Positions 27,612 to 62,017 of a DNA stretch of 64,000 bases are shown in pieces. The notes beneath the pieces are model-generated. The model ran no database searches. It worked only from the letters and a program-made list of their open reading frames with translations, and was not told the DNA's origin. The stretch's first letter is position 1, and each line of letters starts with the position of its first letter. The stretch comes from an uncultured Candidatus Saccharibacteria bacterium (GTDB lineage Bacteria > Patescibacteriota > Doudnabacteria > UBA920 > O2-02-FULL-48-8): assembly GCA_964605735.1 (NCBI GenBank), contig CAZSDS010000001.1, forward strand, positions 573,864 to 637,863, written 5' to 3'. Made by a program: the position numbers and the translations under genes.

Positions 27612-27639
27612 AAAGTGTCTCTGACACTTTCTTTTTTAT
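27612..27639 (+). terminator. Rho-independent terminator
   Basis: Hairpin aaagtgtctctgacacttt followed by cttttttat. It overlaps the dnaJ stop codon on the opposite strand. Confidence 0.7.
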
Positions 27640-28787
27640 CCGGTAAATCTGCTCCAAAAACCTTCGTCCACTTCCACGGACTCACCTTTTTCTTCAGCCA
27701 GTTTTTTAAACAAATCTTTTTCTTTCTTTGTCAGCTTGGTTGGCGTGACCACACGCACCGTCACAAATTGGTCGCCGCGGCCCGAACTGTTGATGACAGG
27801 CACTCCCTTACCTTTTAACCTGAAAACTTTTCCTGACTGGGTTCCTGCTGGAATTTTCAGCTTTACTTCCCCATCAATAGTTTCCACGTCAACGGATGTC
27901 CCTAGTGCTGCCTGATAAAAACTCACTGGGATTTCGGAAAATATATTGGACCCTTCCCGTTTCAGAGTAGGATGAGGGGCAACGTTAAGCCGCAGATACA
28001 AATCCCCTGCCCCGGATCCGCGGTAACCAACTTCACCTTCACCGCTGACGCGCACGCGAGAACCATCATCAACGCCGGCAGGTATGTTCACCTTTAATGT
28101 CTTCATGCGGCGCAATTGGCCCGTGCCTCCGCAGGTCTTACAGGCAATTTCTGGAATTTTACCGGTGCCTGAACATTGATCACATGTAGTGACTGTGGCC
28201 ATGTTCCCCAAGATTGTCCGCCTTGTGGTCCGAATCTGACCTTGGCCATGACACTTTGGACAAGTAATAACCTTGCTGCCAGGTTCTGCTCCGCTTCCGG
28301 AACACACAGTACAGGCATCTTTCTTTTCAATCTTAATTTCCTTTTCTGCGCCGAATACCGCTTCCTGAAAAGTCAGATCAATCTCTATTTCCAAATCAAT
28401 GCCGCGGGTCCTGCTCTGCCTGCGGCCGCCGCCAAAAATATCAGAAAAAATATCATAGGCATCCTCAAAGCCGCCAGCTGATGCGCCGCTAAATCCAAAG
28501 CCTTGCGCAAAATCGCCGAAATCAAAGCCTTCAAAACCGCCAAAACCAGAGCCGCCTGCTCCGCCTCCAGGCATATTCTGGTAAGCTGAGCCAAACCGGT
28601 CATATCTGGCCCGCTTATCCGGATCTGACAGCACTTGGTATGCTTCGTTTATCTGCTTGAATTTCTCAGCATTGCCATTGCCTTTGTCAGGATGGTGCTC
28701 ATGAGCCAAACGCCGGTAGGCTTTTTTGATTTCCTCCGGCGTTGCGGTTTTTGATACCCCTAATGTTTGATAAAAATCCTGTGCCAT
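27636..28787 (-). CDS. dnaJ: Chaperone DnaJ (Hsp40)
   Basis: 383 aa. It has a J-domain with HPD, a Gly/Phe-rich linker, four CxxCxGxG zinc-finger repeats and a C-terminal substrate-binding domain. Confidence 0.95.
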
Positions 28788-28788
28788 T

Positions 28789-29763
28789 TTAGATTGCTAA
28801 TTTCTCAACCTCCACTGTTTCCTTTTCTATCCTGATAAAACCGGCTATTCTTAATACTTTAAATATCGCCCAGCTTAAGAGTAATACAACCCAATTAAAG
28901 ACAAAAGCAAAGGTGCGCATCAGTGCCAGAACCAGGACCGTGAAGAACAACGGGAAAAAATCCTCATACCTCCCCAAGCCTTCCCGCAGTCTTTGCGTCG
29001 CGACCTCGGTTAGAGCCACTCTCAGAGTGACATTGTCGTCCGCGTCCACGCCGAACTGCTCTGCAAAATTCTGCCTGATCTGGTCAAGGAGCTCTCTTTG
29101 CTGGCTGGCGGAAACCTGATTGAATTCCGGATACTGCTGTTCAGCCTGCTTTCTGAAGAATTCGCTCATTCGTTGACTGAGATTGTATTGGGAGCGGTCT
29201 TGCGCCAGCAGTGGGACGCCGCTCACTGCCGTCTCGCCCAATTTTCTGTAGTACTGATCGCGGTCGCGGTTAAAGTCTTCGCTGACACTGGAATAAACCA
29301 CGAATCCCAACAGAATCAAGAACGCATATGTGATGATTATCTGGCTGTTGCCAAGCGTTCGCCTGATGGAAAAGTTCAACTGGTTCGTTTCCTCCCCCTG
29401 CACGCGTCCCTGGAAAAACAAATTTAACAGGAAGAATATTACCCCGCCGATAAAAACGTAAATGTCCCTCGGCATGATCACTAAATATGTAATCAGCCCG
29501 ATGGCGTTGAAGATGAAAAAGGTGAATTTATCCGGCCTGGTTAAGGCAAAGATGCTGACCACCGCCACCCAGACTGCAGAAACCCCGGCGGTGTAAGCCC
29601 AGAAACTGGGATGCCTGCCGCCGAACATGGATTCGCTCAACATCCACCAGTTTAAAACCAGCAGAGCAGAAGACAACAACCCCAAACTAATTTGCTTGAA
29701 ATGCTTTCTGGCTTCAGATCTGTTCGCCTGCGCCTGCCTAATGCTCTCGCCGATTTGTTCCAT
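28789..29763 (-). CDS. Hypothetical polytopic membrane protein inserted between dnaK and dnaJ
   Basis: About 324 aa from the internal ATG at 29763. The track ORF to 29874 would overlap the upstream gene by 95 nt, so the start is ambiguous. It has at least four TM helices and a Q-rich soluble segment. I recognise no family. Confidence 0.5.
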
Positions 29764-29779
29764 ATTTGTTTTATGAAGG

Positions 29780-30085
29780 TTAAGATTGGGTTTTAAAGCC
29801 GAAGTCCGATTTTGACTGCGACTCACCTTCATTAATTGTACCAAATTGTTGCTCGTAGCGGCCGAGATTTTCATTCAGTGCCGCCAGGATGCGCTTGAAG
29901 TGCCCTGGACTGACAATCACCCTTGAGCCAACAATCCCCTGCTGGCCCACAACGTTCATGAAGTCAAAAATGAACTCTTCTTTGGTATGTATGACCTGCA
30001 TCAGGTTTGAATAGAAACCTTGAAGCTTGTCATCATTAATCTTGATTTGGATCTGCTGGCCCTGGTTTGGTGGTTGTTGTGACAT
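29780..30085 (-). CDS. DUF3467-like small protein
   Basis: 101 aa. FYSNLMQVIHTKEEFIFDFMNV...SRVIVSPGHFKRILAALNENLGRYE matches the DUF3467 pattern as I recall it (ysNl..i.hs..EF.lDF...sRii.sP.haKrll.aL.eNi..YE). Confidence 0.55.
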   Translation of the reverse strand: MSQQPPNQGQQIQIKINDDKLQGFYSNLMQVIHTKEEFIFDFMNVVGQQGIVGSRVIVSPGHFKRILAALNENLGRYEQQFGTINEGESQSKSDFGFKTQS

Positions 30086-30107
30086 GTATGTTCAGCCTTT
30101 TTGTTAA

Positions 30108-31985
30108 TTACTCTTTTTTATTTTTTTCTGTGAATTCGGCATCAACAGGTCCGTCTTCTTTGTTTCCTGAACTGGAGTTGCCGGACTTGTCAGCGCCTGG
30201 TTGTGGATTTGATGACTGGTTTTGTTGATACATGGCCGCTCCCACTTTCTGTACAGCATTAGAGAGCTCATCCATTGCTTTCTTGATTGCCTCGACATCA
30301 TCCTTATCCTTAACTTCCTTCAGGGCTGTAATCTTGTCTTCCACCGCTTTCTTGTCATCCGCATTAGCCTTATCTCCCGCATCTTTCAGGGTGCGTTCAG
30401 AAACAGAAATCATGGTATCTGCCTGGTTGCGCATTTCAATGGTCTCCTTGCGCTTGCGGTCCTCCTCAGCATGAGCCTCCGCTTCCTTCTTCATGCGCTC
30501 AATTTCATCTTTGGAAAGGTTTGAAGAACCGGTAATGGTAATGTCTTGAGATTTTCCGGTTGCCTTGTCTTTGGCCGTTACCTTCAAAATACCGCTGGCA
30601 TCAATGTCAAAAGTCACTTCAACTTGCGGTACGCCACGCGGGGCTGGCGGAATGCCATCCAAATGAAATCTTCCCAGAGACTTGTTGTCATGAACCATCG
30701 GACGCTCGCCCTGGACTACGTGAATTTCCACGGAAGTCTGGTTGTCAGCGGCGGTTGAGAACACCTGAGACCTGGAGGTGGGAATTGTGGTGTTGCGTTC
30801 AATCAACGGAGTTGCCACTCCGCCCAAAGTCTCCAATCCAAGCGTCAAAGGGGTAACGTCCAAAAGCAGAATATCCTTCCCTGCGGCATCCCCGGACAAA
30901 ACTCCGGCCTGCACTGCAGCGCCCTTAGCCACGGCTTCCATAGGGTCAATGCCGCGCTCCACCTGCTTGCCAACATAATTTTCCACGAATTTCTGGACTA
31001 CAGGCATGCGGGTCGGACCGCCAATCAAAATAATCCGGTCAATGTCCTGGGGTGTCAGTTTGGCGTCGTTGAGGGCCTGTTCAACCGGGTGTTTCATCCG
31101 ATCTATGATAGGTTTGACCAATTCCTCAAGCTTGGCTCGGGTCAATTTCAGCTCTAAAGTTTTGGAACCGCCGGCTGGATCCGGAGCAATAAACGGCAAG
31201 ATAATGTCGGTTTCGAAAACTGTTGAAAGTTCAATTTTAGCCTTCTCAACTGCTTCGCGGACGCGGTTCATTGCCATTGGATCTGAAGCCAGATCAATTC
31301 CGGTCTTTGATTTGAAATCAGCAATAACGTAATCAATCAAAGCCTGGTCCATGTCTTTGCCGCCCAGCTGTGTGTCGCCTGAAGTTGCCTTAACTTCGAA
31401 TGTCGCCTTACCTCCCTCTTCCGCAAACTCCATGATAGTCACATCCAGCGTTCCGCCGCCTAGGTCGAACACCAAAATCTTCTGTTCCTTGCCGGCCTTA
31501 TCCAAACCGTAGGCGAAAGCCGCAGCTGTTGGCTCGTTGATTACGCGAACCACTTCCAAGCCTGCAATTTCTCCTGCGTTTTTAGTGGCCAAACGCTGAG
31601 AGTCATCAAAATATGCCGGCACGGTAATGACAGCCTTAGTCACGGGTTCGCCGATAAAAGCCTCTGCGTCCTTTTTAATTTTCTGCAGGATGAAAGCTGA
31701 AATCTGTTCTGGGCTGTATTCCTTACCATTGAGTTTAAACCTATGGTTTGTGCCCATTTTCCTTTTTGCTTCGAACACTGTCCCATCCGGATTTGTCACG
31801 GCCTGGCGCCTGGCAGGCTCACCAACCAGCAACTGCCCCTCTTTTGTAAATGCAACGTATGACGGGAACGCTTTACCGGCTACGGTCATACCTTCCGCAG
31901 AAGGGATTATAACCGGCTTGCCGCCTTCCATCACTGACGCTGCCGAGTTGGAAGTACCCAAATCAATTCCGATAATTTTTGGCAT
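30108..31985 (-). CDS. dnaK: Chaperone DnaK (Hsp70)
   Basis: 625 aa. [18 protein letters not shown] and the other Hsp70 signatures are present, along with an acidic C-terminal tail. Confidence 0.97.
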
Positions 31986-32043
31986 AACTATTTCCTTTAG
32001 TGCTTAATACTGATAAAATTAACCCAACCAATAAGGAGGTGCG

Positions 32044-32235
32044 ATGCGCAAATCGTTTGCTAAAATCGCCAAGTTCCTTTTTCTGTTTGTAAGTGCAGTA
32101 GCTGTTTTGTTTTTGCTCGTGATCTCCCCTTGCTACCGCCTGCTGAATGCGTACCTTACGCGGAAGCTGCGCAGGAGCCAGGCCAACCAACGACCAATAA
32201 ACCAAGTAGTCGCAAGCTCGCCTCGCCGCCCGTGA
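32044..32235 (+). CDS. Small hydrophobic/basic protein (63 aa) transcribed divergently from dnaK inside the heat-shock locus
   Basis: AAGGAGG lies 5 nt before the ATG. An extended -10 (TGaTAAAAT) is upstream. The stop codon sits inside an intrinsic terminator hairpin. The N-terminus is a TM helix and the C-terminus is Arg/Lys-rich. Confidence 0.45.
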   Translation: MRKSFAKIAKFLFLFVSAVAVLFLLVISPCYRLLNAYLTRKLRRSQANQRPINQVVASSPRRP

Positions 32236-32271
32236 AATTTACTGATGCGTTTTTCACGGGCTTTTTGTTTT
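32229..32271 (+). terminator. Rho-independent terminator (plus strand) between the sORF and the hsp20 3' end
   Basis: Hairpin cccgtgaaatttactgatgcgtttttcacggg followed by ctttttgtttt. Confidence 0.65.
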
Positions 32272-32686
32272 ATCCCTTAACCTCAATTTCAACTTTGCGA
32301 GGCTTGACCTTTTCGCTTTTTGGCATGGTAACCTTCAGAACGCCGCGTTCACAAACGGCTGAGATTCCTTCAGCGTCAACTTCCGTAGGAAGGGCAATGC
32401 TTCGGGCGAAACTTCCACGTCTGACTTCCTTGCGGTAGTAATCGCGGTTCTTGTCTTCAGTCACCTGCTCATCCCCGCCTTTGATGTGCAACACATTGTT
32501 CTCAATTTCCACGTTTATTTTCTTTGGATCAAGACCTGGAATGCTAATCTCAGCAACGACCTCATTATCAGTTTCATAAAGGTCGACTTCGGGTGACTGC
32601 ATTCGGCCGACTATCGGCATGAAGAAATCATCTTCAAAAAATCTGTCGAGTTCCCTGAAAGGGGTAAACCTAACTAAATTTGCCAT
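32270..32686 (-). CDS. Small heat shock protein (Hsp20/alpha-crystallin family)
   Basis: 138 aa with an alpha-crystallin domain (DLYETDNEVVAEISIPGLDPKKINVEIENNVLHIKG...GVLKVTMPK). Confidence 0.9.
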   Translation of the reverse strand: MANLVRFTPFRELDRFFEDDFFMPIVGRMQSPEVDLYETDNEVVAEISIPGLDPKKINVEIENNVLHIKGGDEQVTEDKNRDYYRKEVRRGSFARSIALPTEVDAEGISAVCERGVLKVTMPKSEKVKPRKVEIEVKG

Positions 32687-32742
32687 AGGTAATTCTCCTT
32701 AATTAATTATTCAAATTGCTTTGACTTTGCTGGCTAAGTGGG

Positions 32743-33294
32743 TCAGCCAACAATTTTATTTTTCCTGGCAACCACTACTTTTGCTGGGATGATGACCCTG
32801 CCATTGAGCGTAAAGCCCGGCTGAATCTCCTTAACAATCCCCTCACCGTCAGACTCCTCTTCCTGTACTGCCTCATGGAGATCAGGGTTGAATTTCTCGC
32901 CGACCGTTTTGATTTTGGCCAGGCCCAGCTCTTCCATTGTTTTCTCCAACTGAATTATTGTGGCCTTCAGGCCCAACAGCCAGTCCTTGTACTTGTCGTC
33001 ATTGGGCGCGTACTTTAAAACCTGCTCCAGGCTCTGCAACGAAGGCATTAACTTCATCACTGTCATTTCCTTGCTGTACTCAAGCAGCTCCCTGCTTTCC
33101 GTCTCTTTGCGGCGTTTGAAATTTTCAAAATCTGCGGCCGCCCGTTTCCAGTTGTTCAAATATTCTTCGTTCTCAGCCCTCAACTTATCCAGTTCACTCC
33201 GCAATTTGCCCTCTGTTTGCTCGCTTGCTTCATCGCCGTTTGAAACGGGACCGTCGTTTTGCGTCATTTCATCTTGCATATCTTCGTTAGACAT
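32743..33294 (-). CDS. grpE: Nucleotide exchange factor GrpE
   Basis: 183 aa. It has a coiled-coil N-terminus and the GrpE motif NWKRAAADFENFKRR. Confidence 0.9.
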   Translation of the reverse strand: MSNEDMQDEMTQNDGPVSNGDEASEQTEGKLRSELDKLRAENEEYLNNWKRAAADFENFKRRKETESRELLEYSKEMTVMKLMPSLQSLEQVLKYAPNDDKYKDWLLGLKATIIQLEKTMEELGLAKIKTVGEKFNPDLHEAVQEEESDGEGIVKEIQPGFTLNGRVIIPAKVVVARKNKIVG

Positions 33295-34030
33295 AAACCA
33301 CCATAATCAGAACAGCGGAACCGGAAATCAGTTTAGACAAAAACTCAAGAATAGACATATTTTTGGCATATGACATCCTCTTTGGCCCAACAATCCCAAT
33401 CAGCCCTTTCTTGCCGTTCTTTAACTTAATTTTAGAAACCATCAAACTCATGTTTTTGGGCATAGGCACCGGCACTTCAGTCCCTATGAATGTTTCTGTT
33501 TTGTACTCGGCATGCTTCATGAGCTTGTCGGCATGCTGGTCAATCTGGTCAAAAAGCTCTGCCACGCCCTGGATAGTCCTTGAATCGGACAAGTCAGGCT
33601 CAGTAATGATCCTGGAAAGTCCGGCGGCTGATGTGTCATGGGGCAGGAGCGTGAAAGCGGCTTGGCCTGAAACCTCGGCCACCAATTTTGAAATAGATCG
33701 GCCCAATTGCTCATGGGCAGCCTGCAATTTGACCAATTCCGCACGGAGCATTTTGCGCTCGCGCTCTGAAAGCTCAAACCTCTGCATCAGCTCATTAACG
33801 AAGAACCTGTAGCCTTTGTCTGTCGGCACCCTGCCCGCAGATTTGTGCGGCTGGGAGATATAACCCTTCTTTTCCAGAACAGCCATTTCATTTCTTATGG
33901 TTGCAGGGCTGACGCTGAGGTTATATTTTTCCACCAATTCTTGCGACCCAACAGGCTGTGCCGCTTCTGAGTATTCCTTAACGATAGCAGCCAGTATTTT
34001 CTGCTGTCTTATGTTTATTTCTCTTTCCAT
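33287..34030 (-). CDS. hrcA: Heat-inducible transcription repressor HrcA
   Basis: 247 aa. Its N-terminal winged HTH (RQQKILAAIVKEY...PVGSQEL...SPATIRNEMAVLEKKGYISQPH) is typical of HrcA. It overlaps grpE by 8 nt. Confidence 0.9.
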   Translation of the reverse strand: MEREINIRQQKILAAIVKEYSEAAQPVGSQELVEKYNLSVSPATIRNEMAVLEKKGYISQPHKSAGRVPTDKGYRFFVNELMQRFELSERERKMLRAELVKLQAAHEQLGRSISKLVAEVSGQAAFTLLPHDTSAAGLSRIITEPDLSDSRTIQGVAELFDQIDQHADKLMKHAEYKTETFIGTEVPVPMPKNMSLMVSKIKLKNGKKGLIGIVGPKRMSYAKNMSILEFLSKLISGSAVLIMVVYV

Positions 34031-34092
34031 TAGAGTTATACCTCATGCCCTCTGGGGCCATTATCTAACGCTAAATCCATTAGTTGCTTTAT

Positions 34093-34119
34093 TTAGCACT
34101 CGCTTCTTAAGAGTGCTAA
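34093..34119. promoter_or_regulatory. CIRCE operator 1 (TTAGCACTC-N9-GAGTGCTAA), a perfect consensus
   Basis: ttagcactcgcttcttaagagtgctaa lies just downstream of the predicted hrcA -10. Confidence 0.9.
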
Positions 34120-34138
34120 TCGCCTAATAATAATAAAT

Positions 34139-34165
34139 TTAGCACTCAACGTTGTCAAGTGCTAA
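34139..34165. promoter_or_regulatory. CIRCE operator 2 (TTAGCACTC-N9-aAGTGCTAA), with one mismatch
   Basis: ttagcactcaacgttgtcaagtgctaa. The embedded TTGACA on the minus strand is the likely hrcA -35 (TTGACA-N17-TATTAT). Confidence 0.8.
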
Positions 34166-34175
34166 AAGCAACAGA

Positions 34176-34207
34176 AAATAAAAAAACCGCAGGGGTGTTC
34201 CTGCGGC
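34176..34207 (-). terminator. Rho-independent terminator after the NUDIX gene
   Basis: On the minus strand, hairpin ccgcaggaacacccctgcgg followed by ttttttt. Confidence 0.7.
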
Positions 34208-34211
34208 GCAA

Positions 34212-34803: not shown

Positions 34804-35343
34804 ATGAAAATATCAAACCATCTCCCGCATTTCAGCGAACCCAACCTGCTGGTCGTTGCGGGAAAACAAGAAGCGGCTTTTTTCAAAGCCAGAAACGACC
34901 AAATACACCAGGTATATCATTTTAAAGTCGAAAAACCGGAGTACTCTGACAACGAGAGCAGAAGAGAAAGGAGAGGAAGTGGCGGCGCTTCAAGGTTCGG
35001 AGGGGGCTCGCCCTTTAAGCACAATGAAAACGAACTTTTGAGAGGCTTCTTAAAACAGCTAACAGACGAGGTCATTGCGCTTGATACAAGAAAAGAGGTC
35101 GACAAGCTGTACCTATTCTGCCCGACATACTTATCCAGCCCAATCGAGGACAACCTCCCGAATGACATACGGAACAAGATTGAATTTATTTTTTTCGGGA
35201 ATTACCTTAACCAACATCCGTTTGTTCTGTTGTCAAAGATCCAGGAATTTCAGAGAATAGAAAAAGACAAAAAAATCGTTGAACCTATAAAACTTGAGGC
35301 TCTTGAAATTTTAAAAAAGACCGGATCTGGGTTGAGTGCATAG
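34804..35343 (+). CDS. Hypothetical protein, possibly host-attachment/baeRF (eRF1-like) family
   Basis: 179 aa. The N-terminal LLVVAGKQEAAFFKA resembles the wVlvaDg.rARlf start of Host_attach-type proteins. This assignment is tentative. Confidence 0.35.
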   Translation: MKISNHLPHFSEPNLLVVAGKQEAAFFKARNDQIHQVYHFKVEKPEYSDNESRRERRGSGGASRFGGGSPFKHNENELLRGFLKQLTDEVIALDTRKEVDKLYLFCPTYLSSPIEDNLPNDIRNKIEFIFFGNYLNQHPFVLLSKIQEFQRIEKDKKIVEPIKLEALEILKKTGSGLSA

Positions 35344-35382
35344 TTTGCAATCTAAAACACCTGCAAAATAAAACGGCAAAAA

Positions 35383-35412
35383 TAAAACACCGCTCGTCAG
35401 CGGTGTTTTTAA
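35383..35412. terminator. Bidirectional rho-independent terminator
   Basis: Hairpin acaccgctcgtcagcggtgt flanked by A/T runs. Confidence 0.65.
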
Positions 35413-35422
35413 TTTCAAACGG

Positions 35423-35626
35423 TCATTTTTGCGAATTTTTTCTGTCTTTGCGCCATTTATCAAATGAATATGCCAGCAACCCCAGGCTTATCACTCCAAT
35501 GCCAATGACTTGGATATAGTCCATAGCCCCCAGATGCCCGTCATTATTGAATCCATGGGCTTTTGCAATGCTGGCGGATCCCAAAAATCCGGCCATGAAC
35601 AATAAAATGAATTTCGCTACCACCAT
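35423..35626 (-). CDS. Small membrane protein (67 aa, 2 TM helices)
   Basis: Hydrophobic ORF overlapping the upstream DoxX gene stop by 10 nt, which makes an operon likely. Confidence 0.45.
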   Translation of the reverse strand: MVVAKFILLFMAGFLGSASIAKAHGFNNDGHLGAMDYIQVIGIGVISLGLLAYSFDKWRKDRKNSQK

Positions 35627-40239: not shown

Positions 40240-41151
40240 TTACCTGAGGCGGCGAAGCCTTGTTGCCCCGCCGATCAGCGCCACCCCGAACAACAGCAGC
40301 GATGCTGGTTCCGGCACGCTCTTCCCCTGGATGACCCGGTCATGTCCGCCATAGTACTCGCCCGGCTGGAGCACGAGCGGCGTCCTGAGGTTGAAGACCA
40401 CCCGCCCGATCGGGTCGGTTGACCCGTCCTGGAAAACGCGATTCACACCGGTGTAGGAGGTGGGATTGTCCCCGCCCCAGACAATGGTGGAAAACACGTC
40501 GCCGTTGAAGCTCCCGGTGTTGACCGGCAGACATCCGACGTTCGGCTCCGTGCAGTTGCCCGTAACCGACCAGATGTTGAACCGGTAGCTCAACTCCGGG
40601 TTGTTCGGGTCAGTGATCGTGTTGTAATAGCCGTCGTAGTTGAAGTACCCGATGATCTGGTCGATGACCGTAACCTCGGTGATCTTGAAGTAACTGGCGT
40701 ACATCCAATCCCAGTTGTTGGCCTCGGCGTAGTTCTGGTAGAGCCCAGGTGTACTGGCGTTCGCCGTACCCTGCGCCTGCGCGTTGTAGAAATCGCCGTA
40801 GGTGCCGTCCTCGATGCCGTTGTTGTCGTAAACGATATTGCCGTCATTGAGGAAGGTCATGGCCTGACCGGCAGTTTCCGGAAACCATGTGTCCCGGTGC
40901 CAGATCTGCCCGGCGTAGCCCCAGGTTGTGGGATCATCCGTGATGAAAGCCATGTTGCCGCCGCTGGCGCGCGTTCCGTTTGGCTGGTTGCCGGTCGGGA
41001 ACTTGCCGCCAGTGATGGCGTAATGGTAATCGTAGATATCCGCCTGGTTGTCTGCCCCGCCGTTGAACGGAAAAATCGGACCAGCCACGGCCGCGGCCGG
41101 AACGAACGCAACCATGCACGCCAGAGCCAGGGCAGTTTTCTTGAGACTCAT
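40240..41151 (-). CDS. Secreted PEP-CTERM domain protein (exosortase substrate)
   Basis: About 303 aa from ATGATG at 41151-41154. AAGGAG is just upstream. The N-terminal signal peptide is MSLKKTALALACMVAFVPAAAVAG. The C-terminus VPEPASLLLFGVALIGGATRLRRLR is the canonical PEP motif plus TM helix plus Arg cluster. The body is Gly/Asn/Tyr-rich. Local GC is clearly above background. The 519-aa track ORF is a spurious N-terminal extension that overlaps the next gene. Confidence 0.8.
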   Translation of the reverse strand: MSLKKTALALACMVAFVPAAAVAGPIFPFNGGADNQADIYDYHYAITGGKFPTGNQPNGTRASGGNMAFITDDPTTWGYAGQIWHRDTWFPETAGQAMTFLNDGNIVYDNNGIEDGTYGDFYNAQAQGTANASTPGLYQNYAEANNWDWMYASYFKITEVTVIDQIIGYFNYDGYYNTITDPNNPELSYRFNIWSVTGNCTEPNVGCLPVNTGSFNGDVFSTIVWGGDNPTSYTGVNRVFQDGSTDPIGRVVFNLRTPLVLQPGEYYGGHDRVIQGKSVPEPASLLLFGVALIGGATRLRRLR

Positions 41152-41305
41152 CATCGCTCCTTGGAAAAAATTGTCACAACACTTTTTTCGCACTGCTTTG
41201 TTGTTCTTACTCACACCTCCTTTATTTGTATTGTGGAATGTACAATAGAAAAAGATACTAAATTTCTGAGGTTTTGTCAACGCCGGCAAAGCAATAAACA
41301 AGGCC

Positions 41306-41341
41306 AAAGAAAAAAGCGGAGCCCCAAGAAGGAACTCCGCC
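41306..41341 (-). terminator. Rho-independent terminator after PEP-CTERM gene 2
   Basis: On the minus strand, hairpin gcggagttccttcttggggctccgc followed by ttttttctttgg. Confidence 0.65.
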
Positions 41342-41381
41342 CAAAAACTGGCAGATGATATTGTGCGGACGAACCGGTGAA

Positions 41382-42107
41382 CTAGCGGCGGCGCCGGCGA
41401 TACGCCCGTGCCCCGCCGATCAGCGCCATCCCGACCAGCAACACGGACGCTGGTTCGGGCACGTTGCCTGTGGTATCCACCATGATTGCGGACCGTCCCA
41501 GCTCCTGCTGACCGTTGTACGCGACCAGGGCAAACGTGTACTGCCCAGGTGCGTTCGGATCCCAGGATCCGGGAGGTGCCACTCCGCCAAAGAGCCCGGG
41601 GAAACCCCAGTCCGTTGACAGAAACCCAAAGCCGAGGTTGTTGGAGCTTTCGGCCAGAGCCGGGAGCGCCACCCCGCCCAGCGAGGTATAGCCATGGTTT
41701 GAGGAATCCGTCCCCGAACCCGGATCGAAATCGTAGTACAGCCGAAGTTCGGTCACGGGTGCAGTGCCGGTGTACGAGTAGAAGGCGTTGAAGTTCCACG
41801 TGGCGTAGGTTGGATTGCCGTTGAGGATGTCACCGCCGGCCTGAGCGTAAAAAATTCCCGCGCCGTTGTCGGTCACCGCCAGGTTTGCGAAGCGCTGTGC
41901 CGCACTCATCCCGAGGATGATCTCGCCGCCGCCGAAGTCGACCGTGGTGATCGCCACGCTTGTGTTGGGAATTCCGCTGCCGCCAAACGTTGCCTGGGGC
42001 AGCGCACCGAACGTATCGAACATCGGAACGATCGGTGAGGCGTGAGCCGTGTCGGCCATGGCAAAGATAGCCAAGGCCACGAGGGTCGAAAGCACACTTC
42101 TTTTCAT
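41382..42107 (-). CDS. Secreted PEP-CTERM domain protein (exosortase substrate), paralogous in architecture to 40240..41151
   Basis: About 241 aa from ATG 42107. AGGAGG is 6 nt upstream. The signal peptide is MKRSVLSTLVALAIFAMADTAHA. The C-terminus is VPEPASVLLVGMALIGGARAYRRRRR. The gene is GC-rich. Confidence 0.8.
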   Translation of the reverse strand: MKRSVLSTLVALAIFAMADTAHASPIVPMFDTFGALPQATFGGSGIPNTSVAITTVDFGGGEIILGMSAAQRFANLAVTDNGAGIFYAQAGGDILNGNPTYATWNFNAFYSYTGTAPVTELRLYYDFDPGSGTDSSNHGYTSLGGVALPALAESSNNLGFGFLSTDWGFPGLFGGVAPPGSWDPNAPGQYTFALVAYNGQQELGRSAIMVDTTGNVPEPASVLLVGMALIGGARAYRRRRR

Positions 42108-42203
42108 CTGCATCCTCCTGCGGTTGTAGAAACTGCCTGAAACACTGTGAACACTTTGCATAGCATACTCTTTTTGGTCCCGTTTGTCAACGCTTTAAGG
42201 GCT

Positions 42204-47228: not shown

Positions 47229-47315
47229 TGGTGGGCACGGAGAGAGTCGAACTCTCACGGGATTGCTCCCGCACGCACCTGAAGCGTGTGCGTCTGCCAG
47301 TTCCGCCACGTGCCC
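47229..47315 (-). tRNA. tRNA-Leu (anticodon CAG), type II with a long variable arm
   Basis: Hand-folded: GGGCACG acceptor, D arm, CACGC-TTCAGGT-GCGTG anticodon arm, variable hairpin CGGGAGCAATCCCG, GAGAG-TTCGACT-CTCTC T arm, encoded CCA. Confidence 0.85.
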
Positions 47316-48090: not shown

Positions 48091-49842
48091 ATGCCAACAC
48101 AAGGCAATATGCGTAGCCGATCGGCTGTGGCCGCTCGTCAGCAGGAAAAATCCCAATCCGCTCCTACCCGCTCCAAGGATGTCTTGAAAGTCATTCCTTT
48201 GGGTGGTATCGAAGAAGTCGGTGAAAACATGACTATCTTGGAGTACGGCGATGACATTCTGGTCATTGACATGGGCTTGGGCTTCCCTGACGAAACCATG
48301 CCTGGAATCGACTACATCATTCCAAACACCAAGTATCTGGAAGATAACAAAAAGCGCATTAAAGGCGTAATTGTTACTCACGGCCACTTGGACCACATTG
48401 GGGCAGTCCCATACATTCTGCCCAAAATCGGTGATCCGCCAATCTACACCATGAAACTCACCGGCGAACTTATCAAAAAGCGCCTGGAGGAGTTCCACTT
48501 GCTTGGCCGATCCCAAATCCATGAATTGAACAAGGATGACATCCTTACATTGGGGAACTTCCGAATTCGATTCTTCCGCATCAACCACAACATTCCTGAT
48601 GGCGTTGGTCTGGCGATCAACACCCCAGCAGGCCTGATGGTTTATGCAACTGACTGGAAATTCGACCACACTCCTGTGGACGGAAGACCAACCGAGTTTG
48701 ATAAACTCGCCAAATTCGGCGGCGAAGGCGTTGCTCTGCTTTTGAGCGACTCCACAAACGCCGAGGTCCCTGGTTACTCCATTTCTGAAAAAACTTTGGG
48801 GGAAACCATTGACCGCATCATGCAGGACGCAAAAGGACGCGTTATCTTTGCAACATTCTCAACCCTGATCTCACGCGTGCAGCAAGTCATAGACGCTGCA
48901 TATAAGACAAACAGAAAGATCGTGGTTACAGGGCGTTCACTCGTGAACAATATTGAGATCTGTCTGGCAACCAATTATCTGAGGATGCCAGCCAAAAACA
49001 TGATCATTAAGACTGAGCAGGCTAAAAAACTTCCTGACAACCAAGTGGTAATTTTGACCACGGGTTCACAGGGAGAAGAAGCCGCTGCTCTGGCCAGGAT
49101 GGCCAGAGGCGAACACAAGACCATCGAAATCAAACGCGGTGACACAGTTGTTGTTTCTGCCTCCCCTATCCCTGGCAACGAACGCGCAGTTTCTGGAATT
49201 CTTTCCAGCTTGGCCCGCCAAGGCGCAAAAGTCCTTTACCAAAAAATCTTGGATGTTCACACTTCCGGTCACGCCCGTCAGGAAGACTTGAAGCTGATGA
49301 TCTCCTTAACAAAACCTAAATTCTTCATGCCTATTCACGGCGAACATCACATGTTGCTCGCCCACGCAGATTTAGCGAAAGGCGTTGGCGTTCCAGAACA
49401 GAACATCTTTACATTGGACAACGGCCAACAGCTTGAGCTTTCTGCCAATGGCGTGAAAGTTGCAGAAGCGAAAATCCCAACCGGTTACGTCTTTGTTGAC
49501 GGCGCTGGCGTGGGTGACGTAGGCGAAGTTGTGTTGCGCGACCGTACGGTCATGAGCAAAGACGGCATGTTCGTCATCATCATGGTGGTGGACAAGAAAA
49601 CCGGCAAGCTCACACAGCAACCAGACATTATCTCCCGCGGTTTCATTTACATGAAAGGATCGGAAGATCTTTTGAAAGAAGTGAAGCACGAAGTGAGAAA
49701 AGCCGTGGAAAGCAAGAGCAAAGTAAAAGCTGAGGCCAACTGGTCTTATATCCGCTCTGAAGTCCGCGACCAAATCGGCGAATTCCTGTTCCAAAGAACA
49801 GAACGCAGACCAATGATACTTCCAGTTGTAATTGAAGTTTAA
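48091..49842 (+). CDS. rnj: Ribonuclease J (beta-CASP metallo-beta-lactamase RNase)
   Basis: 583 aa. HGHLDHIG is the metallo-beta-lactamase motif II. Beta-CASP and C-terminal domains are present. The N-terminus is typical of RNase J. Confidence 0.93.
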   Translation: MPTQGNMRSRSAVAARQQEKSQSAPTRSKDVLKVIPLGGIEEVGENMTILEYGDDILVIDMGLGFPDETMPGIDYIIPNTKYLEDNKKRIKGVIVTHGHLDHIGAVPYILPKIGDPPIYTMKLTGELIKKRLEEFHLLGRSQIHELNKDDILTLGNFRIRFFRINHNIPDGVGLAINTPAGLMVYATDWKFDHTPVDGRPTEFDKLAKFGGEGVALLLSDSTNAEVPGYSISEKTLGETIDRIMQDAKGRVIFATFSTLISRVQQVIDAAYKTNRKIVVTGRSLVNNIEICLATNYLRMPAKNMIIKTEQAKKLPDNQVVILTTGSQGEEAAALARMARGEHKTIEIKRGDTVVVSASPIPGNERAVSGILSSLARQGAKVLYQKILDVHTSGHARQEDLKLMISLTKPKFFMPIHGEHHMLLAHADLAKGVGVPEQNIFTLDNGQQLELSANGVKVAEAKIPTGYVFVDGAGVGDVGEVVLRDRTVMSKDGMFVIIMVVDKKTGKLTQQPDIISRGFIYMKGSEDLLKEVKHEVRKAVESKSKVKAEANWSYIRSEVRDQIGEFLFQRTERRPMILPVVIEV

Positions 49843-55046: not shown

Positions 55047-55060
55047 CGTTTGACTGCTCT

Positions 55061-55088
55061 GCCATCCGCTTTGGATGGCATTTTTTAT
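55061..55088 (+). terminator. Rho-independent terminator
   Basis: Hairpin gccatccgctttggatggc followed by atttttta. Confidence 0.75.
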
Positions 55089-55114
55089 TGCCTCCCTGAT
55101 ACTTGCCCTGATAC

Positions 55115-55143
55115 TTGCCAAAACCACTTGTATTTGCTAGAAT
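55115..55143 (+). promoter_or_regulatory. Sigma70-like promoter for rpsF-ssb-rpsR (TTGCCA-N17-TAGAAT)
   Basis: Near-consensus promoter about 130 nt upstream of the rpsF ATG. Confidence 0.6.
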
Positions 55144-55274: not shown

Positions 55275-55727
55275 ATGCCAAAGTATGAGCTGATGTATAT
55301 ATTATCTTCAGCCGTTTCCGATAATGATGTGCCTGCAGTCGTTGCAGAGGTCGACAAATACCTCTCTTCACAAGGCGGCACGCTTCTTACCCAAGAAATG
55401 TTGGGCAAAAAGAAGTTGGCTTATCCGATCAAAAAAACCAGGAACGGTTTTTATGTTGTCCAAACTTTCAACATGGATTCAAGAAAGTTGCAGGATTTAG
55501 ACAACAAACTGCGCTCAATCGAAGCGATAATCCGCTACCTCGTCATCAATGTTGATGAACAGGAACGACGCGCAGCCAAAGACCGCGTGGTTCGCGAAGC
55601 CATGCAAGCAAACCGCAAGCCTCAAACTGCCCCAGCGGAAGAAGGCTCCCCTGCTGCTCCAATCACCGACACGGAATTGGAACAGAAGATCGAAAAAGCG
55701 CTTGAATCAGAAGATCTGACCAAATAA
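55275..55727 (+). CDS. rpsF: 30S ribosomal protein S6 (with an acidic C-terminal extension)
   Basis: 150 aa. MPKYELMYIL... matches the S6 fold. Confidence 0.9.
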   Translation: MPKYELMYILSSAVSDNDVPAVVAEVDKYLSSQGGTLLTQEMLGKKKLAYPIKKTRNGFYVVQTFNMDSRKLQDLDNKLRSIEAIIRYLVINVDEQERRAAKDRVVREAMQANRKPQTAPAEEGSPAAPITDTELEQKIEKALESEDLTK

Positions 55728-55784: not shown

Positions 55785-56240
55785 ATGGACTTGAACAAAG
55801 TCATGATAATCGGCCGGTTGACCCGTGATCCTGAACTCAGGAGCACCGGCAACGGCACAAATGTCGCCTCTTTCTCCGTAGCCACAGGTTTTACCTGGAC
55901 TGACCAGTCTGGACAGAAGAAAGAGCAGACCGAATTTCACAATGTAGTAGCTTGGAGAAAACTGGCAGAGATTGTCGGCCAGTATCTTAAAAAGGGTTCG
56001 CAAGTTTACATTGAAGGACGATTGCAGACAAGGTCATGGGAAGGCCAGGACGGCAAGAAAAACTACCGAACTGAAATTATTGCCGACAATATGATTATGC
56101 TGGGCGGCCGGCCAAGCGGAACCCCTGCAGCAGCTCCTATTGCCGACCAAAGCAACACGGGAAGCTCGATCCCTCCCTCATCTGCAACTGCAGACTCCAC
56201 CCCTGAAATTCAAATAGACGATTCCGATATCCCGTTTTAA
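55785..56240 (+). CDS. ssb: Single-stranded DNA-binding protein
   Basis: 151 aa with an OB fold (MIIGRLTRDPELR...) and the acidic C-terminal tip DDSDIPF. Confidence 0.93.
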   Translation: MDLNKVMIIGRLTRDPELRSTGNGTNVASFSVATGFTWTDQSGQKKEQTEFHNVVAWRKLAEIVGQYLKKGSQVYIEGRLQTRSWEGQDGKKNYRTEIIADNMIMLGGRPSGTPAAAPIADQSNTGSSIPPSSATADSTPEIQIDDSDIPF

Positions 56241-56263
56241 GCAATTAACTAAACAATTACACT

Positions 56264-56482
56264 ATGCCACAGGCTCCAACCAAGAAACCTTGCCTGTTCT
56301 GCACGGAAAAAATTTCCTACATTGATTACAAGGATACTCAGTTCCTGCGCAGATTCATGTCTCCGCACGCCAAGATCCTGTCCTCAACCAAAACAGGCAC
56401 TTGCGGCAAGCACCAAAGAATGGTGTCACAGGCCCTGAAGAGGGCACGACACATGGCCTTGCTGCCATTTGTAGCAAGTTAA
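56264..56482 (+). CDS. rpsR: 30S ribosomal protein S18
   Basis: 72 aa. CLFCTEKISYIDYKDTQFLRRFMS matches S18. Confidence 0.9.
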   Translation: MPQAPTKKPCLFCTEKISYIDYKDTQFLRRFMSPHAKILSSTKTGTCGKHQRMVSQALKRARHMALLPFVAS

Positions 56483-56491
56483 AAGCTGCAT

Positions 56492-56598
56492 GGTTTGTCC
56501 GTCTGAGGTACGTAGTCAAATTTAACTCGCGTTAAATTTGCTACTCAGGCCTCAACCGTCTCAGCGACGGTTTCCGGCAGCCCTCATCCGGACAAACC
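56492..56598 (+). ncRNA. Conspicuously structured roughly 107-nt element between rpsR and efp (nested hairpins closed by a 10-bp outer stem); function unknown
   Basis: The outer stem is ggtttgtccg/cggacaaacc. Inside are a long imperfect hairpin (ctgagg-tacg-tagtcaaatttaac-tcgc-gttaaatttgcta-ctcagg) and the hairpin ccgtctcagcgacgg. No T-run follows, so it does not look like a simple terminator. Confidence 0.35.
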
Positions 56599-56637
56599 AA
56601 TTCCGCTTGTACTTGCAACAATTATTAAATACACAAT

Positions 56638-57210
56638 ATGTCAGTATTAGACTTTTCGGATTTGAAAGGGACAGGCCAGGTTATCAAATACAACGGCGAA
56701 CCTTATCAAATCATCTGGTCCAACTTCATGCGTACCGCCCAGAGAAAGCCGGTTATCCAAACCAAAATGCGCAACCTCATCAGCGGTAAAGTCATGGAAT
56801 ACTCCTTTAAATACGGAGAAAAGATTGAGGGTGCGGACGTCACCAGAAAGAAAATGCAATATCTTTACTCGGATGACAGCGGCGCATCATTCATGGACCC
56901 GGTCAGCTACGAGACCGTAATCCTCCCCCGCGAACTGGTCGAAGACCAAATCAAGTTCTTGAAAGAAGGTACAGACACAACTGTTGTTTTCTTTGAAGAA
57001 CGTGCCATTGGTCTGGACCTTCCCATCAAGATTGACCTCAAGGTGGTGGAAACTGCTCCGGGCATCAAGGGCGACACTGCCACCGGCGGCACCAAGCCCG
57101 CCACTCTGGAAACTGGACACGTCGTCAATGTCCCTCTTTTCATAAAAGAAGGCGACATGGTCCGGGTGGACAGCAGAGACGGTTCTTACGTAGAACGCGC
57201 CAGCCAGTAA
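56638..57210 (+). CDS. efp: Elongation factor P
   Basis: 190 aa with the three-domain EF-P pattern (KPVIQTKMRNL.SG...). Confidence 0.93.
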   Translation: MSVLDFSDLKGTGQVIKYNGEPYQIIWSNFMRTAQRKPVIQTKMRNLISGKVMEYSFKYGEKIEGADVTRKKMQYLYSDDSGASFMDPVSYETVILPRELVEDQIKFLKEGTDTTVVFFEERAIGLDLPIKIDLKVVETAPGIKGDTATGGTKPATLETGHVVNVPLFIKEGDMVRVDSRDGSYVERASQ

Positions 57211-57315: not shown

Positions 57316-57345
57316 TAAAAAATCACCTGTTCAGGTGATTTTTTG
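57316..57345. terminator. Bidirectional rho-independent terminator
   Basis: Hairpin atcacctgttcaggtgat flanked by A/T runs. Confidence 0.75.
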
Positions 57346-57852: not shown

Positions 57853-58827
57853 TTATATTTTATGCGCGTCCACAACAGGTTTTGCGTGGACCTCACATAC
57901 TTCGCTGCCGTGCAAACCCAGATCTTTAAAGGCTGAAGTTGCAGCCATAGCGCCTGTGGCCGCGGCAGTTATGTCCTGTTTGAACGCCCCAAAGTGATTA
58001 GTAGTATCACCTGCGGCAAACACCCCGTCAATGTTCGTTTGCATGAAATTATCAACCTTAATGTACCCCCTTTCATCCAATTCCACGCCAATTGACTTCG
58101 CTAATTCAACATTTGGCACCGCTCCAATCTCAACAAACAGTCCGTCAATTTTTAATTCACCTGATTTGCCGCCGGTATTAAGCACAATCTTTTCCAGTCC
58201 TAAGCCGCTGGATTTTGAAACGATTTCCTCAACTTGGCTGTCGTAAATGACATCCACTTTATCTCCCAACTTTTTCATCATGTCGTAATTAATTGGCTCA
58301 GCATGCAGTTCTTTTTCCCTGGTAATGAGATAAACTTTTTTAGCGTACACACCAGCCAAGTTTGCCCCCTTAACGGAAGCATCTCCGCCACCGACAATCG
58401 CAATTGTCTTTCCGGTATATAACGGGCCGTCGCAGGTCACGCAGTAATGAACCCCCTTCCCCACTAAACTCTTTTCATTTGATAGGCCAAGTTTTCTTCT
58501 TTCTGTTCCCAGGGCGAAAATCAAAGTCTTGCCTTGATATTCATTTTCACCCACAAAAACCGAAATACAGTGTCCTTGTTTTACAATCCTGGATACCTCC
58601 CCCTCCAGGATTTCTGCGCCAGTGGTTTTGGCCTGGTCGCGCATCCGAGTCATCAGCTCATACCCGTCAATTTCAGGCAGTCCGGGGTAGTTGGAAATGA
58701 TCCAGGCTGTTGAGGTTTCGCCGCCGAACTCCTTGCCTATAACCAAGGTTTTCATTTTATACCGCCCCGCGTAAATGGCGGCTGACAAGCCGGAAGCACC
58801 TGTCCCTATGATTATCAAATCGTACAT
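57853..58827 (-). CDS. Thioredoxin-reductase-like FAD/NAD(P)-binding oxidoreductase (CVTC redox motif)
   Basis: 324 aa. It has the TrxB-like architecture with GxGxxG x2 and CVTCDG in place of the canonical CATCDG. Confidence 0.7.
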   Translation of the reverse strand: MYDLIIIGTGASGLSAAIYAGRYKMKTLVIGKEFGGETSTAWIISNYPGLPEIDGYELMTRMRDQAKTTGAEILEGEVSRIVKQGHCISVFVGENEYQGKTLIFALGTERRKLGLSNEKSLVGKGVHYCVTCDGPLYTGKTIAIVGGGDASVKGANLAGVYAKKVYLITREKELHAEPINYDMMKKLGDKVDVIYDSQVEEIVSKSSGLGLEKIVLNTGGKSGELKIDGLFVEIGAVPNVELAKSIGVELDERGYIKVDNFMQTNIDGVFAAGDTTNHFGAFKQDITAAATGAMAATSAFKDLGLHGSEVCEVHAKPVVDAHKI

Positions 58828-60114: not shown

Positions 60115-61053
60115 TTAGCCATGGTCCAATCCAAGATATCTTTCAGCATCAATAGCGGCCATGCACCCCATTCCGGCTGCAGTGACTGCCTGACGGTAAT
60201 GGTGGTCATGTACGTCCCCTGCCACAAACACACCGGGAACGGAAGTTGCCATTGGGAAATGGGAGTCCTTGCCGCTCTTTAAAACATAACCTTTCTCATC
60301 CGTCTCTACCTGACCCTTGAACAAAGCAGTGTTTGGGTTATGGCCAATGGCAATAAAAGCGCCATCAATTTTCATTTCCCTGGCTTCGCCGGTATTCACG
60401 TCCTTAAGCTTTACCCCTGTCAGCTTTTCATCGCCAAAAAAGTCCTCAACAACAGTGTTGTACATGACCGAAATTTTTGGGTTATTCAGCGCGCGCTCCT
60501 GCATGATCTTAGAGGCACGGAAAGCATCCCTTCTGTGGACGATTGTAACTTTCGAAGCAAACTTGGTCAGGTACGAAGCTTCTTCCATAGCCGAATCCCC
60601 GCCGCCAACTACAATTATTTCTTTGTCTTTGAAGAAAAAACCATCGCAAGTCGCGCATGACGAAACACCCTTGCCACGGAATTTTTCCTCGGAAGGAAGA
60701 CCAAGCCAAATTGATGAGGCGCCAGTGGCAATGATTACGGAATCAGCTGTGTAAGTTTCTTTTCCGATTTCCAAAGTGAACGGCTTTTTAGAAAAATCAA
60801 CTTTTGTGACATCATCATAAACCAACTCAGCGCCGAATCTTTCCGCCTGCTGAATCATTCCCTGCATCAGCTCAGGACCCATGATGCCTTTTGGGAACCC
60901 AGGGAAATTTTCAACTTCCGTGGTAAGCATCAGCTGGCCACCAAAAGTCAACCCAGCGACTATTAAAGGTTTTAAATCTGCACGGGCAGTATAAATACCA
61001 GCAGTTAAACCTGCTGGCCCTGACCCGATAATTATTACTTTATGATGCTTCAT
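60115..61053 (-). CDS. trxB: Thioredoxin-disulfide reductase
   Basis: 312 aa with GSGPAG, the CATCDG redox-active disulfide and a second GGGDSA NADPH motif. Confidence 0.9.
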   Translation of the reverse strand: MKHHKVIIIGSGPAGLTAGIYTARADLKPLIVAGLTFGGQLMLTTEVENFPGFPKGIMGPELMQGMIQQAERFGAELVYDDVTKVDFSKKPFTLEIGKETYTADSVIIATGASSIWLGLPSEEKFRGKGVSSCATCDGFFFKDKEIIVVGGGDSAMEEASYLTKFASKVTIVHRRDAFRASKIMQERALNNPKISVMYNTVVEDFFGDEKLTGVKLKDVNTGEAREMKIDGAFIAIGHNPNTALFKGQVETDEKGYVLKSGKDSHFPMATSVPGVFVAGDVHDHHYRQAVTAAGMGCMAAIDAERYLGLDHG

Positions 61054-61063
61054 ATTACACCTG

Positions 61064-62017
61064 CTATATTTTCTTAATTTGCGTCCAGTCTGAGGTCATT
61101 CCGGCTCCGCCCCGCTGTTTCATTATATGGTCGTGGGCTGCAAGCGCTGCGGCTGCACCCTCACCAGCGGAAATTACTGCCTGCTTGTATGGCCGGTTAG
61201 TCACATCTCCTGCCGCAAACACCCCCGGCACAGACGTTTCCTGGTTGGCGTCTATAACCACCTGCCCCAACTCATCCAATTCGCAGAAACCTTCCAGCCA
61301 TTTTGAGTTTACCATATATCCGATTTCCACGAACAACCCTTCCGTCTCATACTTTACTTGCTGACCAGTCAATAAATTGTGGCATTTAAGATGCTGGAGG
61401 TATTTCTCTCCGCAGACCTCCTGAATCTGGGTATGCGGGACCAGTTCGATTTTTTTATGCTTCAAAACCTTTTTGACCAGCGCCGGATGCCCAATCAGTT
61501 TATCAGTTTTTGACAATGTGTAAACCTTTTTGGCGAATTTGGCGCAAATCAGCGCCGCCTCCAGTCCTATATCGCCATAGCCGGCAACAATAACGGTTCG
61601 GCCCTTGAAAAGAGGGGCATCGCAAGTGGCGCAGTAAGAGACTCCCCTGCCCTTAAGCTCATGCTCACCCGGCACATTCAGATCCATGGGACTTTTTCCA
61701 AAAGCCAGAATAACAGTCTTGGATTTGTATTGTTTGCCGTAAGCCTGAACCACAAAACCATCAGGCGCGGTTTTTAATTTACTCGCTTCCGCTATCTCAG
61801 TTTTTACACCCCAACCTTCAGCCTGTTTCTTTATTTTGCTGACAAGCTCATAGCCGCCAGTCAAAGCTATCCCTGGGAAATTCTCTATGACGTCAGTGCT
61901 GTTGGCCTGCCCGCCAATGTCTTTGGCCAAAACCGAAACCTCCAGACCCCGTCTGGCTGCAAACAAAGCGCTGCTGTAGGCCGCAATGCCTCCACCAATT
62001 ATTAACACATCGGTCAT
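61064..62017 (-). CDS. Thioredoxin-reductase paralogue (CATC motif present, divergent)
   Basis: 317 aa with a YCATCDAP motif. It has the TrxB-like fold but divergent N/C-terminal regions. Confidence 0.7.
   Translation of the reverse strand: MTDVLIIGGGIAAYSSALFAARRGLEVSVLAKDIGGQANSTDVIENFPGIALTGGYELVSKIKKQAEGWGVKTEIAEASKLKTAPDGFVVQAYGKQYKSKTVILAFGKSPMDLNVPGEHELKGRGVSYCATCDAPLFKGRTVIVAGYGDIGLEAALICAKFAKKVYTLSKTDKLIGHPALVKKVLKHKKIELVPHTQIQEVCGEKYLQHLKCHNLLTGQQVKYETEGLFVEIGYMVNSKWLEGFCELDELGQVVIDANQETSVPGVFAAGDVTNRPYKQAVISAGEGAAAALAAHDHIMKQRGGAGMTSDWTQIKKI

Follow-up and report, generated by a model that had tools for sequence, protein, structure and literature searches.

A putative recent palindromic hairpin insertion between rpsR and efp in a Doudnabacteria genome

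What occupies the 155 nt (56483-56637, + strand) that separate the co-directional genes rpsR and efp, and does it serve either of them? The window, by which we mean the whole 64-kb stretch of DNA analysed here, comes from a Candidatus Doudnabacteria (CPR/Patescibacteria) genome; within the GTDB species set, its EF-P was closest to that of MAGs of Doudnabacteria/Patescibacteria. According to the ORF map and Pfam, rpsF (Ribosomal_S6, 55275-55727), ssb (SSB, 55785-56240), rpsR (Ribosomal_S18, encoding ribosomal protein S18, 56264-56482) and efp (elongation factor P with EFP_N/EFP/Elong-fact-P_C, 56638-57210) follow one another on the + strand, an order that is kept in 33 relatives. A preliminary description of the locus had placed a structured element between the S6-SSB-S18 genes and efp, with which Pfam agrees, and had offered several readings of it, namely a cis-regulatory leader of efp, an attenuation or processing site within the operon, and a small ncRNA. 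We know of no RNA biology done in Doudnabacteria-type CPR organisms.

Within 4 kb downstream of efp, the window also encodes three thioredoxin-reductase-like Pyr_redox_2 paralogues (57856-58827, 60118-61053 and 61067-62017 (-)), with genes for an alpha/beta hydrolase and for a DUF3105 protein among them, and a fourth Pyr_redox_2 gene is located at 17170-18414 (-).

Structure of the element

The element spans 109 nt (56491-56599, + strand) in the MFE fold, starting about 8-9 nt after the rpsR stop codon and ending 38 nt before the efp start. It had been described as a roughly 107-nt structure in which a 10-bp outer helix encloses a long imperfect hairpin and a second, short one, and folding reproduced this architecture while extending the helix by one pair. 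The helix core GGTTTGTCCG (56492-56501) pairs with CGGACAAACC (56589-56598) and T56491-A56599 forms the eleventh pair, generating the perfectly pairing, TIR-like 5' arm TGGTTTGTCCG (56491-56501) and the 3' arm CGGACAAACCA (56589-56599). A 2x2 internal loop, which reads TC/TC on the + strand and GA/GA on the - strand, separates this outer helix from an inner extension of 5 bp formed by TGAGG (56504-56508) and CCTCA (56582-56586). The junction inside the helix holds two hairpins, thus forming a three-way junction in the MFE structure. Hairpin A (56512-56544), seen both in the MFE fold and as a self-complementary BLAST match, has the layout GTAG-T-CAAATTTAAC / TCGC loop / GTTAAATTTG-CTAC, that is, 4+10 bp (14 bp) with one bulged T, and hairpin B (56549-56578) combines a 3-bp base (GCC/GGC) with a 7-bp stem (AACCGTC/GACGGTT) below a TCAGC loop. 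In the MFE of the whole spacer, AAGC (56483-56486) is also paired with GCTT (56605-56608). The A/T-rich tail that leads to the efp ATG (56600-56637) is unstructured, positions 56609-56637 being unpaired.

As RNA, the 155-nt spacer folded at -54.8 kcal/mol on the + strand (z -6.96), and none of 200 dinucleotide shuffles was as good; the - strand was 10 kcal/mol more stable (-64.7 kcal/mol, z -8.26). The 109-nt element folded as DNA reached -31.7 kcal/mol (z -8.86), and when the approximately 43 intergenic spacers of the window that measure 40 nt or more were compared, the rpsR-efp spacer had the most negative z-score. The 40 predicted pairs are Watson-Crick throughout, with no G·U among them. 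Some G·U pairs are normal in long-lived structured RNAs and are absent from young inverted repeats; hence, the exclusive use of A-T and G-C pairs points to a young DNA palindrome, not to an old RNA structure. The three helices represent three separate near-perfect palindromes, which is compatible with an origin by nested insertion or template switching. Furthermore, the motif CTCA/TGAG occurs five times within the element (shuffle p ~0.0015, for a motif chosen post hoc), a mere hint at arms built from motif repeats as found in relatives.

Other spacers of the window were found to be structured or seemed so. A non-coding stretch of 392 nt (5188-5579) between hisS (5583-6860, -) and rpsU/S21 (4894-5187, -) folded at -134 and -131 kcal/mol on the two strands (z about -3) and matched no Rfam family; a long leader and an ncRNA not yet recognised are both conceivable. 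At 35343-35444, in the convergent spacer after the gene 34804-35343, two interleaved inverted-repeat pairs (35343-61/35402-20 and 35364-83/35425-44) constitute a direct duplication of a palindromic unit of about 60 nt. A seemingly structured spacer at 41800-42146 falls inside the ORF 41382-42161. Two G+C-rich ORFs at 40240-42161 (-) (0.58-0.62 compared with a window mean of 0.476) possess signal peptides and C-terminal VPEPAS...hydrophobic...RRRR tails resembling PEP-CTERM, had no Pfam match at 1e-8, and were possibly acquired horizontally.

Orthologous spacers and further copies

If the element were a conserved regulator, it should accompany its flanking genes in close relatives. The only other copy was found in the Logan contig L081/L082, which is 98.5 % identical over 5.7 kb of DNA and carries the same 155-nt spacer with one mismatch in the unstructured tail, the structured part in L082 being identical to that of the window. 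In two JGI contigs with a 100 % identical S18 the spacer measures 24 nt, in the closest GTDB relative (L001; EF-P 91 %, S18 95 %) 11 nt, and in contig P0003 (EF-P 91.6 %) 21 nt. Longer spacers occur in P0002 (EF-P 87.9 %; 85 nt), P0016 (S18 70/72; 82 nt), L103 (S18 70/72; 129 nt) and P0006 (S18 71/72; at least 157 nt). The nested hairpin into which the L103 spacer folds (-33 kcal/mol) shows no resemblance to the element of the window, while the flanking efp DNA is 84 % identical. Compared with L001, the spacer of the window contains about 144 nt of extra DNA, and since the tail 56600-56637 is missing from this short-spacer relative, it probably belongs to the inserted or expanded DNA as well. 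Judged from these alignments, with the polarity of insertion versus deletion set by parsimony, the element appears to be a recent, lineage-specific gain at a junction of fast turnover. CPR genomes are small and streamlined, and yet the contents of the rpsR-efp spacer differ completely where S18 differs at no more than 2 of 72 residues.

The wider comparison comprised 33 Doudnabacteria/Patescibacteria with the rpsF-ssb-rpsR-efp order, in which rpsR and efp are separated by 1 to 120 nt (26 nt or less in 13, 49 nt or more in 20). In 15 of the 20 long spacers the fold had a z-score of -3.4 or lower; the sequences of these structures are mutually unrelated and most lack a T-run. In several genomes, successive spacers of the ribosomal-protein cluster are occupied by repeated palindromic hairpins: L022 carries the same hairpin of about 90 nt in its rpsF-ssb, ssb-rpsR and rpsR-efp spacers (1993-2059, 2557-2644 and 2897-2991; 100 % and 91 % identity), L031 and L046 have a hairpin in two spacers each (~2611-2673 and ~2929-2989), and the rpsR-efp hairpin of L028 (2884-2991) recurs in the rpsF-ssb spacer of L031 (2045-2117). 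Many of the hairpin arms in relatives are built from repeats of short degenerate motifs. Thus, as far as sequence comparison can tell, the rpsF-ssb-rpsR-efp cluster offers, in its spacers, a hot spot at which unrelated, genome-specific, U-less palindromic hairpins are repeatedly gained, lost and swapped. These hypervariable hairpins could serve as strain-level markers.

Known RNA families were searched for as well. With Rfam 15 at the gathering threshold, the whole window yielded two tRNAs only; a permissive scan of the whole window placed nothing at the element, and a permissive scan of 56200-56900 returned only two chance-level lncRNA matches (E 0.38 and 1.7). ARAGORN predicted a tRNA-Leu(CAG) at 47229-47315 (-) whose variable arm is long and whose CCA is encoded; it stayed below the Rfam tRNA gathering score and appeared as a weak tRNA-Sec match of 27 bits.

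The absence of the element from the closest relatives, together with the absence of an Rfam match at either threshold, lends no support to a conserved efp leader, riboswitch or ncRNA gene. Where the cis-regulatory leader of the preliminary description would be expected, the nearest genomes have only 11, 21 and 24 nt and others have unrelated hairpins, and the comparison of orthologous rpsR-efp spacers by which it was to be judged revealed no conserved structure; likewise, its small ncRNA is not sustained as a conserved gene. For annotation, this means that the element should not be called an efp leader, a riboswitch or a conserved sRNA.

Is the element, instead, one member of a dispersed family? 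A blastn-short search with the spacer against the 64-kb window returned the self-match only, and a scan of viral contigs with one arm gave 6 chance matches inside coding-like sequence. Both 11-mer arms with a gap of 31-91 nt were found 14 times in the JGI metagenomes, a collection outside which the host genome lies, and no interior was common to these matches and the element. Three of them, perfect palindromes at the very end of contigs (L092 5236-5325, L099 1155-1218 and L102 2763-2848), are most likely fold-back assembly artefacts, and the remaining ones are unrelated palindromes or chance matches. Such artefacts at contig ends inflate the matches of any inverted-repeat pattern search in the JGI collection. 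A hairpin of about 103 nt, found solely through the 11-mer that it has in common with the outer helix of the window, lies in opposite orientations in L091 (Ga0268386_10039729, 2900-3002) and L100 (Ga0214472_10019426, 4534-4636), both of about 60 % G+C, and has arms made of tandem repeats of GGTTTGTCC/GGTTTGT.

As to hallmarks of mobility, the element has terminal inverted repeats as MITEs do, with 11-bp perfect arms and 16 of 18 positions matching when the extension is included. No target-site duplication was found, as the flanks AAGCTGCA and ATTCCGCT contain no common direct repeat, and Pfam detected no transposase, Y1_Tnp/RAYT, reverse transcriptase or Nop-domain protein among the 69 ORFs of the 64-kb window. 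With one copy in the window, the element is an unproven candidate for membership in a repeat family.

Transcription context and competing explanations

Upstream of rpsF, the scans called a terminator-like hairpin with T-run (55060-55080, +) and a promoter-like site, TTGCCA-17-TAGAAT (55115-55143, +), so that 55060-55143 likely marks the start of the transcription unit; its end likely coincides with a bidirectional terminator-like A6-hairpin-T6, AAAAAATCACCTGTTCAGGTGATTTTTT, located after efp (57317-57344, both strands). Because the cluster has a terminator-like hairpin with T-run on either side and none was found inside it, the element is probably co-transcribed within an rpsF-ssb-rpsR-efp mRNA. 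The relatives also have U-less hairpins in the internal spacers and hairpin+T-run structures after efp, and the layout across the clade is one of U-less, genome-specific palindromes inside the cluster and a hairpin with T-run at its end.

No Shine-Dalgarno motif is present in the tail (56600-56637), nor is there a Shine-Dalgarno-like purine run 5' of efp (56620-56637) or of rpsR (56250-56263). Gene starts of this kind, preceded by A/T-rich regions such as AAATACACAAT-ATG, suggest SD-independent initiation for the host genome. Regulatory DNA of a familiar type was noticed at 34031-34211, in the spacer that precedes a minus-strand gene cluster recognised by Pfam, hrcA-grpE-hsp20-dnaK-...-dnaJ (27639-34030). 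This spacer contains two CIRCE-like operators, one reading TTAGCACTC-N9-GAGTGCTAA and the second an imperfect copy, as well as a canonical-looking terminator at its far end.

We regard it as probable, on balance, that the element is a recent, lineage-specific, hairpin-forming palindromic insertion of REP/MITE-like character, for which an intercistronic RNA barrier or processing effect seems likely. According to this model, palindromic DNA of about 109 nt would have entered the rpsR-efp spacer recently and in one lineage; once transcribed, it would form a very stable three-way junction within the polycistronic mRNA, which, by analogy with known systems, may act as a barrier to 3'-5' exonucleases and/or as a site for double-strand-specific processing, and the stability of the S6-SSB-S18 segment would thereby be uncoupled from that of efp. 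As RNase J is encoded in the window (48091-49839), the structure could, at a 5' end, also shield the downstream fragment. Moreover, a helix that begins 9 nt past the rpsR stop codon may perturb the termination of S18 translation. In 2015, Liang, Rudd and Deutscher reportedly found that a REP no more than about 15 nt away from a stop codon can make terminating ribosomes stall and reduce the expression of the gene before it, and by analogy the spacing of the element to the rpsR stop would allow such REP-type stalling. Direct occlusion of efp initiation is unlikely, since the fold leaves the start of efp unpaired. The fitness effect of the element may be close to neutral. The processing or attenuation site that the preliminary description envisaged inside the operon likely survives only as an incidental RNA-level effect of a recent insertion.

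The main rival to a palindromic insertion with such RNA-level effects is a U-less or partial terminator or attenuator, at which most rpsF-ssb-rpsR transcripts would end while a fraction reads into efp. The very stable structure directly 3' of the last ribosomal-protein gene speaks for it, and some relatives (e.g. L033, L012 and L020) carry a canonical hairpin plus T-run at the same junction, which implies that transcriptional separation of efp does occur in the clade. However, an intrinsic terminator consists of a G+C-rich hairpin with an immediate U-tract, and here the 3' flank AATTCCGCTTGTAC offers no U-tract next to the outer helix, just as had been noted beforehand, nor is there a T-run beside hairpin B; the terminator scan called no terminator-like site at the element, whereas clear hairpin+T-run sites are numerous elsewhere in the host window. 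In addition, the promoter scan detected no promoter-like site between the element and efp, and inspection of the 38-nt tail by hand revealed poor hexamers only, so that efficient termination would silence efp. Given also that rpsR and efp are only 11-24 nt apart in the nearest relatives, we consider a terminator function unlikely. We likewise give little credence to the view that the element is purely selfish or neutral palindromic DNA, be it a MITE/REP-like insertion or a palindrome made de novo by template switching, with no consequence for the RNA. Its strain specificity, its perfect Watson-Crick arms free of G·U, the analogous hairpins repeated in relatives and the fast turnover of spacer contents would all fit such an origin, but the mRNA of an operon that is presumably expressed at a high level is unlikely to be unaffected by a structure of -55 kcal/mol about 9 nt beyond a stop codon, and neither a second copy (window and JGI scan) nor a target-site duplication or transposase (window) accompanies it. 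Furthermore, strong hairpins recur at rpsR-efp in 15 of the 33 relatives, which could mean selection for structure, i.e. functional convergence, over tolerated selfish DNA.

Two readings that would make the element a regulatory or independent RNA are very improbable. One is a conserved cis-regulatory leader of efp, such as a riboswitch or a protein-binding site for feedback by S6:S18 or EF-P, for which one might cite the location in the 5' region of efp and the three-way junction, an architecture typical of many regulatory RNAs; it is at odds with the missing element in genomes with identical S18 and in relatives with ~91 % EF-P identity, with the lack of a matching Rfam family, with the efp start region (56609-56650), which is unpaired in the fold, and with pairs that contain no G·U or other sign of evolution at the RNA level. 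Orthologous spacers that lack the element already largely refute such a leader, an autoregulatory S6:S18 or EF-P binding site included. The other, to which we attach hardly any probability either, is a small RNA gene in its own right. The minus strand, a possible location, folds more stably (MFE -64.7 versus -54.8 kcal/mol on +), and its 2x2 loop reads as a tandem G·A (GA/GA). There is a small chance that this stronger fold and the tandem G·A are relevant to an antisense RNA, but no promoter-like site adjoins the element on either strand, an adjacent terminator T-run is missing (on the minus strand, the helix and the closest T4 are 7 nt apart), Rfam has no match, and the element is not conserved.

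Beyond the single locus, one may imagine that Doudnabacteria, and perhaps other CPR, possess fast-evolving, genome-specific, U-less hairpins that home to, or are selected in, the S6-SSB-S18-EF-P spacers and divide the polycistronic mRNA into segments that are processed or differ in stability, in the manner of chloroplast intercistronic elements; the three-way junction of the window would then be an unusual member, possibly a nested insertion of three palindromes. We put this forward tentatively and hold it to be rather doubtful. If the hairpins did shape mRNA processing or stoichiometry, they would offer a simple and evolvable tuning of operon output. The hypervariable, sometimes repeated hairpins across the clade are, as a mildly interesting remainder, of more interest than the element of the window itself.

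Comparison with known elements

Several known RNAs were considered as counterparts. A string CGGAUGAG...GGAAAC on the minus strand is reminiscent of a hammerhead, but it has G for the conserved U4 and a poor stem II, and no such family appeared among the permissive Rfam matches up to E = 10. A box C/D RNA or K-turn was rejected as well, for the GA/GA loop is symmetric and lacks a 3-nt bulge, one strand carries the C-like motif and the other the D-like motif, and no Nop protein is encoded in the window. A TIGR array is defined as a tandem series of units adjoining the gene for a Nop-domain Tas protein, in which one RNA carries both box C and box D (PMC12045711). Like the stem-loop units of TIGR-Tas systems, which are present in CPR and have variable palindromic stems in CPR genomes (PMC12045711), the element shows a CUGA (box D-like) beside the outer stem on the + strand and a GAUGA (box C-like) on the - strand. 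Unlike them, it is a single unit and forms no array, its box C-like and D-like motifs are split between strands, and no Nop-domain Tas is encoded in the 64-kb window.

A closer parallel is provided by the REP/BIME sequences of enterobacteria and pseudomonads. REPs are palindromes of 20-40 bp in high copy number with an unpaired GTAG or CGTC tag and a link to RAYT, a Y1 transposase; they sit 3' of ORFs, with neighbouring genes that are either unidirectional or convergent, and in the unidirectional case their transcription is plausible (PMC3733652). At the RNA level, they block 3'-5' exonucleases and stabilise the upstream mRNA segment after endonucleolytic cleavage, and a protective 3' structure is known from malE-malF along with other intra-operon protective hairpins (PMC5927463). 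The element is similarly palindromic, hairpin-forming, extragenic and strain-variable, and it shares the location of REPs, just 3' of a stop codon between co-directional genes and probably co-transcribed. It differs from them in measuring 109 nt and being branched, with only hairpin A (33 nt) in the REP size range, and in occurring only once in 64 kb. Whereas the tag of REPs is unpaired, the GTAG of the element (56512-56515) pairs with CTAC (56541-56544) and its CGTC (56557-56560) is inside the stem of hairpin B, and the 64-kb window holds no RAYT.

Some bacterial MITEs are transcribed together with their neighbouring genes and form long hairpins, among them the Correia elements of Neisseria, ERIC/IRU and the pneumococcal RUP/BOX; as RNA, the hairpins of such MITEs can be substrates of RNase III or change mRNA stability. 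With these, the element has in common the 100-150 bp class, terminal inverted repeats, a place in an intergenic operon spacer and strain-specific presence. On the other hand, it shows no target-site duplication, neither the window nor the JGI scan yielded a second copy or a family consensus, and its interior consists of two independent palindromes and not of one long foldback. Since its size, the pairing of its tag-like motifs and its flanks free of a target-site duplication depart from these classes, we file the element beside REP/BIME, the ERIC/Correia-type MITEs and the hairpin repeats of small genomes, as an intergenic palindromic hairpin insertion and not as a REP or MITE. The repetitive hairpin-forming elements (RHEs) of sponge mitochondria, which invade intergenic regions, belong to a host from a different domain of life; they nevertheless resemble the present case in forming genome-specific hairpin repeat families in the spacers of compact genomes by repeated independent gain (PMC2800124). 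RHE-like multi-copy behaviour is indeed seen in the relatives L022, L031 and L046.
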